From Flavobacteriales bacterium (GTDB lineage: Bacteria; Bacteroidota; Bacteroidia; Flavobacteriales_F; PHOS-HE28), in the NCBI GenBank assembly GCA_016700415.1, contig CP065018.1:2389894-2453893 (forward strand): 64,000 nucleotides of DNA, read 5' to 3'. This document shows positions 1 through 42,728 of the stretch, in pieces. Numbering within the stretch: the stretch's first letter is position 1; each line of letters opens with the position of its first letter. The position numbers were made by a program, and so were the translations under genes. The notes under the pieces were generated by a model, which searched no databases, had not been told where the DNA came from, and saw nothing but the letters and a program-made list of their open reading frames with translations.

Positions 1-455
1 CCGTAAGGTCCAAGCGCGTACCCTCGGCTTCCGCCAAACGGTCATCCGGAACGATCCGCAAGGTTCCGATGGTGATGGAGTCCTGTGCCTTGGCCTGTTT
101 GCGTCGCACCAAGGCCCGGAGGCGCGCCACGAGTTCCGGTAAGTGAAAAGGCTTGGGCAAATAATCGTCCGCGCCGAGGTCGAGGCCGCTCACCTTATCG
201 TCCAACGAACCCTTGGCGGAGATGATGATGATGCCGCAGGCGTTGTCGGCCTTGCGCAATGCGCGCACGATGTCGAGCCCGTTCCCCTGGGGTAAAGTGA
301 TGTCCACCAGCACCGCGTCGTAGCTGTGCAATTGCGCCTTTTCCATGGCGGAAGGGAAGTCCGTGGCGGATTCCACCAAGTGGCCCTCGTCCTGCAAATA
401 CTGCCGGATCGTGCGGCGCAGTTCCGTTTCATCCTCGATGAGGAGCACCTTCATG
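1..455 (-). CDS. OmpR-family response regulator (partial; C-terminus runs off window start)
   Basis: Reverse-strand translation from ATG at 455..453 gives MKVLLIEDETELRRTIRQYLQDEGHLVESATDF...DAVLVDITLPQGNGLDIV...IISAKGSLDDKVSGLDLGADDYLPKPFHLPELVARLRALVRR, a classic receiver domain followed by the start of a winged-helix domain. It is absent from the ORF track because no stop lies within the window. Confidence 0.85.
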
Positions 456-918
456 CGTGCAAGCTATGGAGCGATCCCTGTCGGAAATTTGAAGAGAACC
501 CTAATTCCTGATGGCTGATCGCTAATTCCTGCCAGCGTACTTCGCGCCCTTCTTCGCTGTTTCTTAGGTAGCGCATGAAGTTCCCGATGTCCTTGCTTTC
601 ATTCTTGCACTTATAGAAAGCAGCATCGAACTCCTCTTGTGTGATGTGCCTGCTGTCCAATGCTCGGTAGGGCTGTGATCGGGTTTCTCCAATGGAGCCC
701 TTTGAAATGGAAAGGAACTGGCCAAACTCCCGGTTACCATCGCGTTCAAAGCCTTCGGCTATGTTATCCATGCAGGAGCCGGAAGACCGGTTGATCTGAT
801 CCTTCAATGCGAAATCCCTTGCGAATGAACCCTTCTGCGTTAACCCCCAGATCCCTTTGCAGAGCAAGCGCGCCTGTTGCCAAATACCGAGATCCTCGAA
901 AGTCGTGATGGTGGCCAT
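451..918 (-). CDS. four-helix-bundle protein (23S rRNA intervening-sequence protein family) with read-through C-terminal tail
   Basis: The 155-aa ORF has an N-terminal ~118 aa typical of this small paralogous family (MATITTFEDLGIWQQARLL...IAEGFER...SKGSIGETRS...). The last ~35 aa lie beyond the left inverted repeat and overlap the response-regulator start (ATGA-type overlap). Confidence 0.7.
   Translation of the reverse strand: MATITTFEDLGIWQQARLLCKGIWGLTQKGSFARDFALKDQINRSSGSCMDNIAEGFERDGNREFGQFLSISKGSIGETRSQPYRALDSRHITQEEFDAAFYKCKNESKDIGNFMRYLRNSEEGREVRWQELAISHQELGFSSNFRQGSLHSLHA
500..512. repeat. left arm of 13-bp inverted repeat flanking the four-helix-bundle cassette
   Basis: CCTAATTCCTGAT at 500..512 is the reverse complement of ATCAGGAATTAGG at 929..941. 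A second direct copy CTAATTCCTG lies at 522..531. Confidence 0.75.
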
Positions 919-928
919 GAAGTGCTGG

Positions 929-941
929 ATCAGGAATTAGG
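929..941. repeat. right arm of 13-bp inverted repeat flanking the four-helix-bundle cassette
   Basis: ATCAGGAATTAGG lies 11 nt upstream of the 4HB start codon. Confidence 0.75.
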
Positions 942-973
942 AATCAGCAAAATAGCCGATCAACAGGCGAAGC

Positions 974-2419
<1,446 letters not shown>

Positions 2420-2524
2420 GGGTTAAAAACTACCACGAAGACCGCTAAGGGGAGTGCCGATCTCCTTGCCTTTTACTTCCTTCGTGTCCTTCGCGTTCTT
2501 CGTTGTATAAATTCCTTGCGTGGT

Positions 2525-2851
2525 TCAAATCGAAAAACTCTCTCCGCAGCCACAGGTCCGGCTCGCGTTGGGGTTGACGAACTGGAAGCCTTTGCCGTTG
2601 AGCCCGCCGCTGAAATCGAGTGTGGTGCCGAGGAGATAGAGCAGGCTCTTTTTGTCCACCACCACTTTCACGCCGTTGTCCTCGAAGACCTTGTCTCCAT
2701 CCATCATCTTATCGTCGAAGACCAGGTCGTACGAAAGGCCGCTACAGCCGCCACCCTTCACACCGACGCGAACGAAGTGCTGCGGACCACGGCCTTCCGT
2801 GCCCAAAAGCTTGGTGAATTCCTGCTTAGCGTTGTCACTCACTTTGATCAT
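2525..2851 (-). CDS. sufA: iron-sulfur cluster insertion protein (HesB/IscA/SufA family)
   Basis: 108 aa ending in the conserved C-x-C-G-x-S-F motif (RTCGCGESFSI). It lies immediately upstream of sufB on the same strand. Confidence 0.9.
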   Translation of the reverse strand: MIKVSDNAKQEFTKLLGTEGRGPQHFVRVGVKGGGCSGLSYDLVFDDKMMDGDKVFEDNGVKVVVDKKSLLYLLGTTLDFSGGLNGKGFQFVNPNASRTCGCGESFSI

Positions 2852-2939
2852 GCCTGTATTCTATTTAGAATCCATCTAAATAAAGACGGTCACAAAGGTA
2901 CAAAGCAACGGGGGCGCAGCAAACGGTCCGGAAAGCCTG

Positions 2940-4061
2940 TCACTGATAGCCTTTTGCCTGGTCGCGCATCACCAGGGTCCAATCCATTTTCCCGTAGTTG
3001 GTGCCCAGCCGCACCATGACAAGTTCCCGCGCGGGATCAACGTAAATGAACTGCCCGAGGTAGCCCTTGGCCTCGAAATCACCCTCGGCCGATGGCAGCC
3101 ACCATTGGTACTGATAGAAGGGGGCGCTTCCGTTGGCGGTATCCAGGCGGGTGCTTTGCTCCACCCATTCCTTCGGTACCAGCTGCTTACCCCGCCAATT
3201 GCCCTTGTGCAGGTAGAGCGAACCGAGCATGGCGAAATCACGTGCAGGCGCATTGAGACAGCAGAAGGTCTTCTCGATACCGCCCTTCTTGCGGTCGATG
3301 CTCCAGGATGCGGGATGGACCATGCCCAAGGGTGCCCAGATCTTGTCGTTGGTATATGCGGTGATCGTACGCATGTCACCGCCCTTCCGCAAGGCGCGCT
3401 CCAGGATCCACCCGAGTAATTGACTGCTCCCGCTTTGGTACTCGAAATGCTCACCTGGCGGATGGCCTAGTTTCATCTTCGCCATGCCTCGGTACAGGCG
3501 CCTACCATAGTAGAACGTGGCGGCATCACCGAAAGGGCTCTTGTAGCTCTCGTTGAAATCGAGGCCACTGGTCATCTGCAGAAGGTTCTCCACGGTCACC
3601 TTGTCGAACCCGTTCTTCCGCAGCTCCGGGATGAAGTCGGTGACAGGTTGGTCGACTCCGGTGATGTAGCCGTCCGCGATGGCACAGCCGATCAACATGC
3701 TCAGCAAGGACTTGGCCATGGAGAACGACGCGTGCAGGTGGGCCTCATCGTAGCCCTTGTAGTAGCGCTCGTACACGATGGTGTCGCGCTGGATCACCAA
3801 GAAGGCCACCGTCTCACGCTCCTCAATGAATTCGTCGAACGTTTGATCTTTCCCCTCATAGGTTATGCCGTGCGGGAGCTTTTCCGTTTCCGCCACCGCA
3901 TACCGGTACGGCTCCGGTGAGGCTGGCAGCGGCCGGGACGGGAACTTGCGCCAGTCATTGGTGCCGGCGAAATTGTAGATGACGAAGCGGCCGACCGTAC
4001 AGCTACAAAGTAGAAGGCAGGCGAAAAGGAAAACAGTGACTTTCAGGGAACGGGCGTGCAT
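2940..4061 (-). CDS. serine hydrolase, beta-lactamase family (lipoprotein)
   Basis: 373 aa. A signal peptide plus lipobox (LLLCSC) is followed by the S-x-x-K active-site motif (FSMAKS) and a class-C beta-lactamase-like layout. Confidence 0.8.
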   Translation of the reverse strand: MHARSLKVTVFLFACLLLCSCTVGRFVIYNFAGTNDWRKFPSRPLPASPEPYRYAVAETEKLPHGITYEGKDQTFDEFIEERETVAFLVIQRDTIVYERYYKGYDEAHLHASFSMAKSLLSMLIGCAIADGYITGVDQPVTDFIPELRKNGFDKVTVENLLQMTSGLDFNESYKSPFGDAATFYYGRRLYRGMAKMKLGHPPGEHFEYQSGSSQLLGWILERALRKGGDMRTITAYTNDKIWAPLGMVHPASWSIDRKKGGIEKTFCCLNAPARDFAMLGSLYLHKGNWRGKQLVPKEWVEQSTRLDTANGSAPFYQYQWWLPSAEGDFEAKGYLGQFIYVDPARELVMVRLGTNYGKMDWTLVMRDQAKGYQ

Positions 4062-4248: not shown

Positions 4249-5700
4249 ATGCTCAAGCAATACCTCTCCCAAAAGCTCCAACAGAAGCTCAGCCCGCAGC
4301 AGATCCAGCTGATGAAATTGCTCCAGGTGCCCACGCTGGAACTGGAGCAACGCATCAAGCAGGAGATGGAGGAGAATCCTGCTTTGGAGGAAGGCGAAGA
4401 CCACGACGAGGAGGAGGAGATGACCCACGAGGCCGCGGCGGAGAACGAGGAGACCACCGAATCCAGCAACGAAGAATTCGACCTGAGCGACTACTTCCAG
4501 GACGACGACACGCCGGACTATAAGCTGAGCGCGAAGAACCAAAGCGCGGACGACGAGGAGTACGAAACGCCGATCACCGGCGGCAGTACGTTCCAAGATG
4601 CCATGCGCACGCAGCTCTCCCTGCGCGATGTGGACGAGCGCACCGAGCAATTGGCCGAGCACATCATCGGCAACTTGGACGAGGACGGTTACCTCCGCCG
4701 CGGCCTGGACCAGATCGTGAACGACCTGGCCTTCACCGCCAATATCATGACGGACGAGACGGAACTCGGCAAGGTGCTTCAGGAGGTCCAGTCGCTTGAT
4801 CCGGTCGGCGTGGCCGCACGCGACCTGCGTGAATGCCTGCTGCTGCAATTGACGCGGATGCACAACGCGGTGGACGTGCTCACGGCGAAAGCCATCATTG
4901 ATAAGCAATTCGACGCGTTCACCAAGAAGCACTATGAGCGGATCATGGAGCGGTTGGAGATCGACGAGGATGCCTTGCGCGACGCCATTGAGGTGATCGT
5001 GCGCTTGAACCCGAAGCCCGGCAATACCGGCCGCGACACCACGAAGTCCGCGCAAGCCATCGTGCCCGACTTCGCAGTGAACGCGGTGGACGGACAGCTG
5101 GAGCTTTCACTGAACGGGCGCAATGCCCCGGAGCTGCGCGTGAGCCGCCAGTACCGCGACATGATCAAGGAATACCAGCGCAACAAGAAAGATCCCAAGG
5201 CCAAGGACGCGCTGGTCTTCATCAAGCAGAAGCTCGATTCCGCCAAGTGGTTCATCGATGCGATCAAGCAGCGCCAGAATACGCTGCTCATCACCATGGA
5301 GGCCATCATGGAGCATCAGCGCGACTTTTTCCTCACCGGCGACGAGACCAAGATGAAGCCCATGATCCTGAAGGACATCGCCGAGAAGGTGAGCATGGAC
5401 ATCAGCACCGTGAGCCGCGTGGCCAACAGCAAATACGTGCAGACCGACCACGGCACCTACCTGCTCAAGTTCTTCTTCAGCGAAAGCCTGATGACGGACA
5501 GTGGCGAAGAGGTGAGCACCCGCGAAGTGAAGAAGATCCTGGAGGAAGCGATCATTGCGGAGAACAAGCAGAACCCGCTGACGGACGACGAGCTGACAAA
5601 ACTGTTGCGCGGCAAGGGCTACAACATCGCCCGGCGCACTGTGGCAAAGTACCGGGAGCAATTGCACATGCCGGTGGCCCGCCTCCGGAAGGAGCTTTGA
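4249..5700 (+). CDS. rpoN: RNA polymerase sigma-54 factor
   Basis: 483 aa with an N-terminal Gln/Leu-rich activator-interaction region, an acidic linker and the C-terminal RpoN box (ARRTVAKYREQL). Confidence 0.95.
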   Translation: MLKQYLSQKLQQKLSPQQIQLMKLLQVPTLELEQRIKQEMEENPALEEGEDHDEEEEMTHEAAAENEETTESSNEEFDLSDYFQDDDTPDYKLSAKNQSADDEEYETPITGGSTFQDAMRTQLSLRDVDERTEQLAEHIIGNLDEDGYLRRGLDQIVNDLAFTANIMTDETELGKVLQEVQSLDPVGVAARDLRECLLLQLTRMHNAVDVLTAKAIIDKQFDAFTKKHYERIMERLEIDEDALRDAIEVIVRLNPKPGNTGRDTTKSAQAIVPDFAVNAVDGQLELSLNGRNAPELRVSRQYRDMIKEYQRNKKDPKAKDALVFIKQKLDSAKWFIDAIKQRQNTLLITMEAIMEHQRDFFLTGDETKMKPMILKDIAEKVSMDISTVSRVANSKYVQTDHGTYLLKFFFSESLMTDSGEEVSTREVKKILEEAIIAENKQNPLTDDELTKLLRGKGYNIARRTVAKYREQLHMPVARLRKEL

Positions 5701-42449: not shown

Positions 42450-42605
42450 GATGCAAATTTACGCCGGGATGGAAAGAAGAGCACCGCAGGTATCGTTGGA
42501 AGGGATCCGCAGTGAACGCAGATAGACGCAGATAAATACAGGATCCACTTCTGTGCCCGATAGGCGTAAATGCTCGCTTCAAAGCCCCGGCAAAAGGCAT
42601 TTCTC

Positions 42606-42642
42606 TTCGTTGCGCTCGTTGCGCTCGTTGCGTCCGTTGCGG
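42606..42642. repeat. tandem 9-bp repeat array (NNCGTTGCG ×4)
   Basis: ctCGTTGCGctCGTTGCGctCGTTGCGtcCGTTGCG lies in the pgk upstream intergenic region. The same heptamer family occurs around the GxxExxY gene (57148..57173 inverted; 57640..57810). Confidence 0.8.
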
Positions 42643-42728
42643 TTGATCCCGTTTCGGCGGTTAGCATTCATCCTGCTTCGTGTCCTTCGCGTCCTTTGTG
42701 GTAGGGATCTTCCCGGTAATTTCGCGGC

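Follow-up and report, generated by a model that had tools for sequence, protein, structure and literature searches.

We analysed a 64,000-nt window of the genome of a Flavobacteriales bacterium (GCA_016700415.1, contig CP065018.1, positions 2,389,894-2,453,893 of the forward strand), in which a gene of the four-helix-bundle (4HB) family, the family of the proteins encoded within 23S rRNA intervening sequences (IVSs), lies between sufB and a response-regulator gene. The 13-bp inverted repeat that brackets this gene is what erosion has left of two tandem heptamer arrays in opposed orientation, and is neither a chance match nor a transposon-type terminal repeat. Opposed arrays of this kind are widespread at 4HB loci, and on balance we favour the view that arrays and gene together make up an IVS-type cassette, in which the open reading frame (ORF) would sit in the loop of a stem formed by pairing of the array RNA.

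The initial annotation had described a 13-bp inverted repeat and a second direct copy of a 10-mer within it, and both are present. CCTAATTCCTGAT at 500-512 has its exact reverse complement at 929-941, as found by direct reading and by repeat finding, and CTAATTCCTG recurs at 522-531, 21 nt (3 x 7) from its first copy. The left arm and the 10-mer copy belong to an array of four to five heptamers downstream of the gene and the right arm to one of three heptamers upstream of it (Table 1), the arms being separated by 416 nt and lying on opposite sides of the ORF. Because both arms share the 7-nt periodicity a second pairing register is available, in which 514-531 opposes 931-948 (18 nt, 89 % complementary). 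The upstream array ends 8-10 nt short of the 4HB ATG at 918, and the right arm 10 nt short of it. RNA folding of the window cassette gives a terminal stem in both the minimum free energy (MFE) and the centroid structures.

Within the window the 13-mer is found at the two arm positions and nowhere else, and the GAATYAG unit at this locus only. Perfect inverted repeats of at least 13 bp with a spacing of 50-600 bp occur at 2 loci, against 0.8 expected from shuffles, a weakly significant excess, so that the reality of the repeat rests on comparative data. The weakness of this figure would agree with two independent simple-sequence tracts (stabilisers resembling the cyanobacterial short tandemly repeated repetitive (STRR) sequences, terminators or contingency tracts), the complementarity of which would be a by-product of a single genome-specific unit occurring in both orientations or, in this window, chance. 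We regard this as improbable. The arm on each side of the gene has a single orientation, so no local hairpin can form in the window, and a scan of 300-1200 for sigma-70 promoters and intrinsic terminators returned no site, Bacteroidota promoters lying outside the models of the scan. The second of the 2 loci with such a perfect repeat is AGGCCGCGGCGGAG at window positions 4430-4707, which is 14 bp long and GC-rich.

Opposed arrays across the 4HB family

The comparative set comprised 80 loci with 4HB relatives at 50-90 % identity, one genome per species and nearly all from Bacteroidota (L and P numbers denote compared loci or contigs and database proteins, respectively), and flank statistics were computed over 81 4HB loci. 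Complementarity was scored as the best ungapped pairing of the 100-nt upstream flank with the 140 nt that follow the core; this score was preferred because RNAduplex energies, computed on long flanks, failed to distinguish true pairs from controls (median -39.8 kcal/mol for matched and -36.8 kcal/mol for displaced flanks). The median score was 12 at 4HB loci and 7 in all three controls, namely displaced windows in the same loci, shuffles, and mismatched pairs that combine the upstream flank of one locus with the downstream flank of a second. The 95th percentile of the displaced controls was exceeded by 72 % of the 81 loci and that of the mismatched loci by 48 %, and the inverted flank signal also holds within the orthologous sufB-linked set. 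When the 81 cassettes were folded a median of 31 pairs joined the 5′ and 3′ flanks in the MFE structure, compared with 9 in controls of the same length; for the cassette of L012 a terminal stem is present in both MFE and centroid folds with z = -3.57.

Tandem Repeats Finder (TRF), used at scores of 30-44 since a score of 24 proved too permissive, detected 66 arrays with a period of 6-9 nt in 28 kb beside 4HB genes, a 13-fold enrichment over the 0.062 per 350 nt found elsewhere, and 77 % of the 4HB-adjacent arrays have a period of 7. The inverted orientation of the flanks scored higher than the direct one (median 12 vs 8), a T-rich arm lies upstream in 45 loci and an A-rich arm in 8, and the 4HB gene is co-oriented with both of its neighbours in 57 of 65 cases. 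Such non-random orientation, together with the enrichment at 4HB flanks, argues against independent tracts, in favour of which it can be said that a single unit recurs at many spacers in L055, L100 and L136, that arrays often stand alone within operons, for example in the nuoA-nuoB spacer of L121, and that local hairpins are present in L004 and L084. Arrays usually take up the entire spacer between the upstream stop and the downstream start codon, and vary in length among relatives. In the 6-kb locus L055 arrays of CTGAAAC(T) occupy almost every spacer and at 2130-2610 a composite tandem repeat of about 60 bp alternates CTGAAAC units with a conserved hairpin, cctcacctccgctaaagctacggtgagc.

Each locus has its own repeat unit, and its two arms remain complementary to each other. 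Examples from different lineages include (GTTTCAG)n before the ATG with (CTGAAAC)n after the stop, CGGGTTG with CAACCCG, and GTTTAAA with TTTAAAC. Among the closer relatives of the window cassette, L012 has CTGATTCCTAATTCCTAATTC ending 9 nt ahead of the ATG and about nine recognisable units of the GAATTAG/GAATCAG type past the stop, and L002 has CTGATTCCTTATTCCTGATTCCTGA upstream and about nine recognisable, more degenerate GAATCAG-type units downstream. The dominant variant covaries on the two sides: CTAATTC upstream goes with mostly GAATTAG downstream in L012 (TAATTC/GAATTA), and CTGATTC with mostly GAATCAG in L002 (TGATTC/GAATCA). The repeat is therefore not confined to this locus as a class, every relative having its own version, and the gene itself is syntenic in relatives. 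The view in the initial annotation of 4HB genes as modules flanked by inverted repeats draws support from most of the 81 loci, from their position in intergenic spacers, from a second cargo described below and from the patchy occupancy of suf spacers; the repeat itself is a degenerate heptamer array and not a fixed terminal one.

This variation of the unit also bears on a rival in which an oligomeric protein, be it the pentameric Avd-like 4HB protein or some host factor, binds the arrays, their inverted layout then reflecting autoregulation or packaging of the cassette RNA or DNA and not base pairing. Relatives of the 4HB family such as bAvd bind nucleic acids, and PF22296 also matched two neighbours. 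A regular 7-nt periodicity would suit a ring-shaped multimer. The protein Xcc0516 is a pentamer of four-helix bundles, as cited in PMC4990558. We nevertheless consider protein binding quite unlikely, as the units differ wholly between loci whose proteins are 55-65 % identical with the arms still complementary, the variable position differs even between orthologs of 85-90 % identity, and similar arrays flank an unrelated protein and are also found far from any 4HB gene.

Proposed array pairing, a second cargo and gene-less arrays

In the mechanism that we favour the cassette would be co-transcribed with its host operon and the arrays of the transcript could pair in any of several registers, looping out the ORF, with a predicted stem of 13 bp (perfect) or 18 bp (imperfect) in the window and of 20-60 bp in relatives. 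By analogy with the IVSs of 23S rRNA, such a stem may be a substrate for RNase III, cleavage by which would separate the cassette RNA from the host messages, and we infer that the repeat most probably serves in RNA pairing of this kind, with an RNase III site on offer. In the DNA itself the arrays would be prone to slippage and could serve as rearrangement breakpoints; in this window the response-regulator gene has replaced the rest of the suf operon, as also in L213, and a frameshift at 552/553, probably recent, carries the ORF through the array into the start codon of the regulator. Set against a DNA terminal repeat or a protein-binding site, an RNA-level reading gains from units that are specific to the locus yet matched between its arms, from a design that allows several registers, and from strand polarity and a shared orientation with the host genes.

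Several observations weigh against array pairing as the basis of the cassette. About a quarter of the loci lack a clear inverted match in the flanks examined, and MFE folds tend to join the two ends of whatever RNA is folded, as the median of 9 pairs in controls illustrates. The fold of the whole window cassette is no more stable than those of shuffles (z = -0.57) and its stem is short. In L013-L016 and L084 arrays of both orientations precede the ATG, and local hairpins would thus compete with the long-range stem, and concerted evolution of the arrays at the DNA level could mimic covariation. Lastly, just 2-3 of 84 (GAATYAG)3 clusters adjoin a 4HB gene among the matches listed; these clusters come from a scan of metagenome contigs that returned at least 120 stretches, of which 80 were analysed. 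As (GAATYAG)n arrays are common without a 4HB gene, the arrays appear to be a more general feature and the link to 4HB genes may be indirect. Gene-less arrays and competing local hairpins keep the alternatives open.

In L013-L016 and in L084 (2915-3000 and 4180-4265) a third array follows the stop, the local hairpin and the long-range stem being mutually exclusive; L004 has both array orientations downstream of the gene. The candidate rule that a (GAATYAG)3 array predicts a 4HB gene was rejected on the cluster counts given above.

The window contains a second cassette of the same architecture, the ORF of which encodes a GxxExxY protein with a PDDEXK_3 domain (Table 1). It lies between a marC-like gene and rnhA, with all three genes on the + strand, and is flanked by three copies of CGCAACGNN (57147-57173) and by about 12 reverse-complement 9-mer units (57653-57817); its arms of 27 nt are 89 % complementary in several registers. 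A GxxExxY homolog on the unrelated metagenome contig L209 is also accompanied by inverted arrays, and together these two cases indicate that the architecture is tied neither to one cargo nor to one unit.

Opposed arrays may also form hairpins without any ORF, as in L014 (1298-1425, in the sufA-sufB spacer), L100 (8660-8800) and L110 (6390-6465), which could be empty versions of the cassette, and the gene-bearing form is best viewed as an ORF in the loop of an opposed-array hairpin. An intergenic region of the window at 42516-42696 contains ACGCAGATA twice, TCGTTGCGC four times and CTTCGCGTC twice with no obvious ORF between them, and TCGTTGCGC shares its core with the arrays at 57.7 kb.

History of the cassette downstream of sufB

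The read-through of the annotated 4HB ORF (918..451) across the left repeat, which the initial annotation had pointed out, is confirmed, as is its end at a TGA (453..451) overlapping the ATG of the response-regulator gene (454..452) in the sequence ATGA. Its explanation as the product of an insertion is not, since the tail is due to an indel at 552/553, either a 2-nt deletion or a 1-nt insertion between positions 553 and 552. The +1 frame of the window retains the family C-terminus KKGAKYAGRN followed by the TAG at 524..522, and restoring the frame yields a protein of 132 amino acids ending in NSEKKGAKYAGRN, like the orthologs P0002, P0004 and P0010. Orthologs are 129-137 amino acids long and end in RYLRNSEKKGxKYAGRN, whereas the 155 amino acids of the annotated product exceed the usual 120-135 or so and the conserved end is replaced. 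The arms consequently bracket the ancestral 132-amino-acid ORF and not, as first supposed, a family core of about 115 amino acids. The ancestral TAG sits in the inner repeat copy, 9 nt ahead of the 500-512 arm. The repeat unit itself supplies the stop codon, as TAG of GAATTAG in the window and L012, TAA of GAATTAA in L002 and TAA of GAATAAG in L213.

Once the frame is lost the ribosome reads on across the array until the next stop, the one overlapping the regulator ATG. Perfect preservation of the out-of-frame peptide implies either a very recent change or a consensus error, and as GAAGAAGG is common to the window and the independent contig L001 a real mutation is favoured. L001 is 99.7 % identical to the window over 760 nt and then diverges completely in its last 32 nt (L001 760-792), from window position 547 onward, just past the frameshift site, giving an alternative C-terminus of a 133-amino-acid protein, EEGQARRCRYML; this is either strain variation or an artefact of a low-coverage contig end. 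Tails or heads translated from arrays (ISNQ..., QQSGISN...) are found in other database proteins, including P0005, P0007, P0024 and P0033. P0024 (L214 455-1063) is a mis-framed 4HB ORF of 202 amino acids, internally frameshifted and running into sufC, with its start inside the upstream array (MISDCRLLI...ISNQPISNC), and suggests that in the 4HB family extensions derived from arrays recur as an artefact of annotation.

The initial annotation had read the locus as a fresh insertion into a spacer between sufB and the response-regulator gene. This does not hold, as sufB-4HB adjacency is widely syntenic (L001, L002/L003, L004-L011, L013-L016, L213, L214-L216), reaching distant Cytophagales, Flavobacteriales and Bacteroidales, and the 4HB-response regulator pair is shared with L012, L212 and L213. 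The cassette is, judging by these sequence comparisons, an old resident downstream of sufB. The ancestral arrangement is evidently sufB-4HB-sufC-sufD-sufS-sufE, the order seen in L214. Many of the 80 loci lie in the suf operon, in different spacers (sufA-4HB-sufB, sufB-4HB-sufC, sufC-4HB-sufD), and Flavobacterium zhoui (L084) has two cassettes in the order sufB-4HB-sufC-4HB-sufD. The sufB-sufC spacer is empty and 80-100 bp long in L045 and L085, whereas in many others it measures about 450 bp and contains a 4HB gene; in some other genera it is occupied by an unrelated small gene. One further cassette lies between cysD and cysN, and published tables and text add the order guanylate kinase-4HB-nadD in F. 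columnare and 4HB genes inside cas operons (PMC3936711).

Such patchy occupancy of orthologous spacers would be expected if the arms were terminal inverted repeats acting at the DNA level and the cassette a mobile, non-autonomous element inserted into operon spacers, either resembling a miniature inverted-repeat transposable element (MITE) or mobilised by a recombinase or nuclease in trans. This would also agree with two unrelated cargoes in one architecture, one of them with a PD-(D/E)XK nuclease fold, with the ORF-less versions, and with the points at which homology ends. Homology with L002 stops at window position 500, the outer end of the downstream array, and homology with L012 and L212 begins between 950 and 972, at the start of the sufB-4HB spacer. 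In both L012 and L212 GGCTTCGCC follows the stop of a different upstream gene, a TonB-dependent-receptor-like gene being present in place of sufB with the order 4HB-response regulator-histidine kinase retained, so the spacer travels with the cassette. On the 3′ side the neighbour varies within the clade of the window, being the response regulator (window, L213), DUF1508 (L002) or yoeB/yefM (L004).

We consider a mobile cassette rather unlikely all the same. The sequences outside 500 and 948 have no direct repeat in common that could be a target-site duplication, the arms vary in copy number and have a locus-specific unit with no conserved recognition sequence, and the repeat has no further copy in the 64 kb. 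Co-orientation with host genes and the strand polarity of the arms are unexpected for a DNA transposon. No filled/empty pair of cassette sites at high identity was found among the relatives, and the flanks of close relatives change one side at a time, at the cassette edges, which points to rearrangement occurring at the arrays rather than to transposition of the cassette.

Two other origins for the locus were considered and rejected. A chimeric 4HB gene arising through an internal recombination switch-point does not agree with the even identity to L012 and L002 along the gene. Mis-assembly joining two paralogous cassettes was discounted as L213, an independent assembly from a related organism with an intact 4HB gene of 134 amino acids, has the same sufB-4HB-response regulator order, so the junction is genuine.

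The window 4HB protein matches PF05635 over residues 8-110 (94.6 bits, cut-off 33.8) and TIGR02436 over residues 12-118 (87.3 bits, cut-off 24); a look-up for exact matches to it returned no database record. Window positions 1-4061 contain, in order, a beta-lactamase-family gene, sufA (2851..2525), sufB, the 4HB gene and the response-regulator gene. There is no sufC, sufD or sufS anywhere in the 64 kb, the suf operon being truncated here, and no second 4HB paralog was found in the window. The gene is flanked by sufB and the regulator gene and not by a helix of a 23S or 16S rRNA gene; a search of positions 1-3000 with Rfam gave no rRNA, permissive E-values adding just two matches at chance level.

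Table 1. Coordinates of the cassettes, arrays and neighbouring genes in the 64,000-nt window
Feature	Position	Strand	Details
Downstream (3′) heptamer array	501..535	-	Gene sense GAATTAG-CGATCAG-CCATCAG-GAATTAG
Units of the downstream array	501-507, 508-514, 515-521, 522-528, 529-535		Read on the + strand: CTAATTC, CTGATGG, CTGATCG, CTAATTC, CTGCCAG
Upstream (5′) heptamer array	927..948	-	Gene sense CTGATTC-CTAATTC-CTGATCC
Units of the upstream array	927-933, 934-940, 941-947		Read on the + strand: GGATCAG, GAATTAG, GAATCAG
Annotated 4HB ORF, 155 aa	451..918	-	PF05635 / TIGR02436; residues ~1-121 conserved, last ~34 codons out-of-frame read-through
Frameshift site	552..553	-	Window GAA--GAAGGG; L012 has GAAAAGAAGGG, L002 has GAAATGAAGGG
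Ancestral stop TAG, +1 frame, within repeat unit GAATTAG	522..524	-	Restored frame gives 132 aa
sufB-4HB spacer, 55 nt	919..973	-	Array and motif GGCTTCGCC directly 3′ of the sufB stop
sufB, upstream host gene	974..2419	-	NF008773, 903 bits
OmpR-type response-regulator receiver gene, N-terminal 151 aa, continuing beyond the window edge	2..454	-	Downstream neighbour
Second cassette, same architecture	57147..57817	+	Whole-window TRF, profile match, flanking arrays
GxxExxY / PDDEXK_3 ORF, 138 aa	57196-57612	+	TIGR04256, E = 7e-36

Relation to rRNA intervening sequences and other known elements

The closest likeness is to the 23S rRNA IVSs with an S23p ORF of Leptospira, Coxiella burnetii, Xanthomonas and Brucella (PMC4990558), which share with the cassette the protein family PF05635, a size of about 430-480 nt, terminal inverted repeats forming a stem that encloses the ORF, tandem heptamers of varying copy number just 5′ of the ATG, a co-oriented position within a host transcript (a predicted one for the cassette), and the existence of ORF-less versions. 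The Coxiella IVS is 428 nt long with its S23p ORF enclosed by a 28-bp terminal stem, has two or three GACAGAT tandem heptamers before the ATG depending on the strain, and is excised by RNase III, the cleavage in the stem falling on the first repeat (PMC4990558). The hosts differ, as the cassette lies in a protein-coding operon after sufB and the IVSs in helix 25 or 45 of 23S rRNA; the stem is 13-18 bp in the window cassette compared with 28 bp in Coxiella, and the repeat unit is different. RNase III excision has been demonstrated for the 23S IVSs, whereas for the cassette it would follow by analogy.

The STRR heptamers of cyanobacteria were reportedly described by Mazel et al. in 1990. They resemble the cassette arrays in their 7-bp tandem units, their intergenic position within operons, the capacity of opposed arrays to form hairpins and, judging from L055, L100 and L136, a lineage-specific unit that may recur at many loci. 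For 7-bp STRR hairpins between operon genes such as hupS and hupL, transcript stabilisation or translational coupling has been proposed (PMC2670836). In the papers found, STRR hairpins are described without an ORF in the loop, whereas the cassette belongs to another phylum and has a 400-nt gene in its loop. The fold family of TIGR02436 also includes bAvd of diversity-generating retroelements; the cassette lies instead in an Fe-S assembly operon, and no reverse transcriptase, template repeat or variable-repeat target adjoins the 4HB gene in the first 4 kb of the window. Like MITEs and integron cassettes it is small, lies between genes, has inverted repeats and contains at most one ORF, a promoterless one. 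Unlike a MITE it has no target-site duplication or conserved terminal sequence, its arms being tandem-repeat arrays, and unlike an integron cassette it has no compact attC-type site 3′ of the ORF; its arms flank the ORF, its neighbours are sufB and a regulator gene, and no integrase or cassette array was seen in the first 4 kb of the window.

In the full texts searched, which include few subscription papers, we came across no account of repeat-flanked cassettes with 4HB or GxxExxY genes outside rRNA, and such cassettes may already be known. The proteins of 23S rRNA IVSs have been a curiosity since the early 1990s; they belong to a very large family, most members of which occur outside rRNA genes.

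Taken alone this window is a modest finding, an old and slightly damaged cassette, and the generalisation is the part worth following. We offer tentatively, as a possibility that we hold to be appreciably less likely than the cassette itself, that Bacteroidota and apparently other phyla contain a large, unrecognised class of mRNA intervening sequences, in which 4HB/Avd-like or GxxExxY ORFs lie in hairpins of genome-specific heptamers or nonamers in the spacers of essential operons. These would be excised by RNase III and be of the same kind as the 23S IVSs, their arrays would also be hot spots at which operons break apart, as with suf here, and their cargo might aid the spread or maintenance of the cassette. 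If the copies outside rRNA do share the IVS architecture, the IVS would be one case of a general cassette riding in host transcripts, and RNase III excision as known from the rRNA literature would offer a model that can be tested directly on hundreds of thousands of genes. Contig breaks beside 4HB genes would be explained too, as would the odd N- or C-terminal extensions of 4HB proteins rich in ISNQ- or QELA-type peptides, these being translated arrays, and there would be a mechanism by which conserved operons, suf among them, are broken up.

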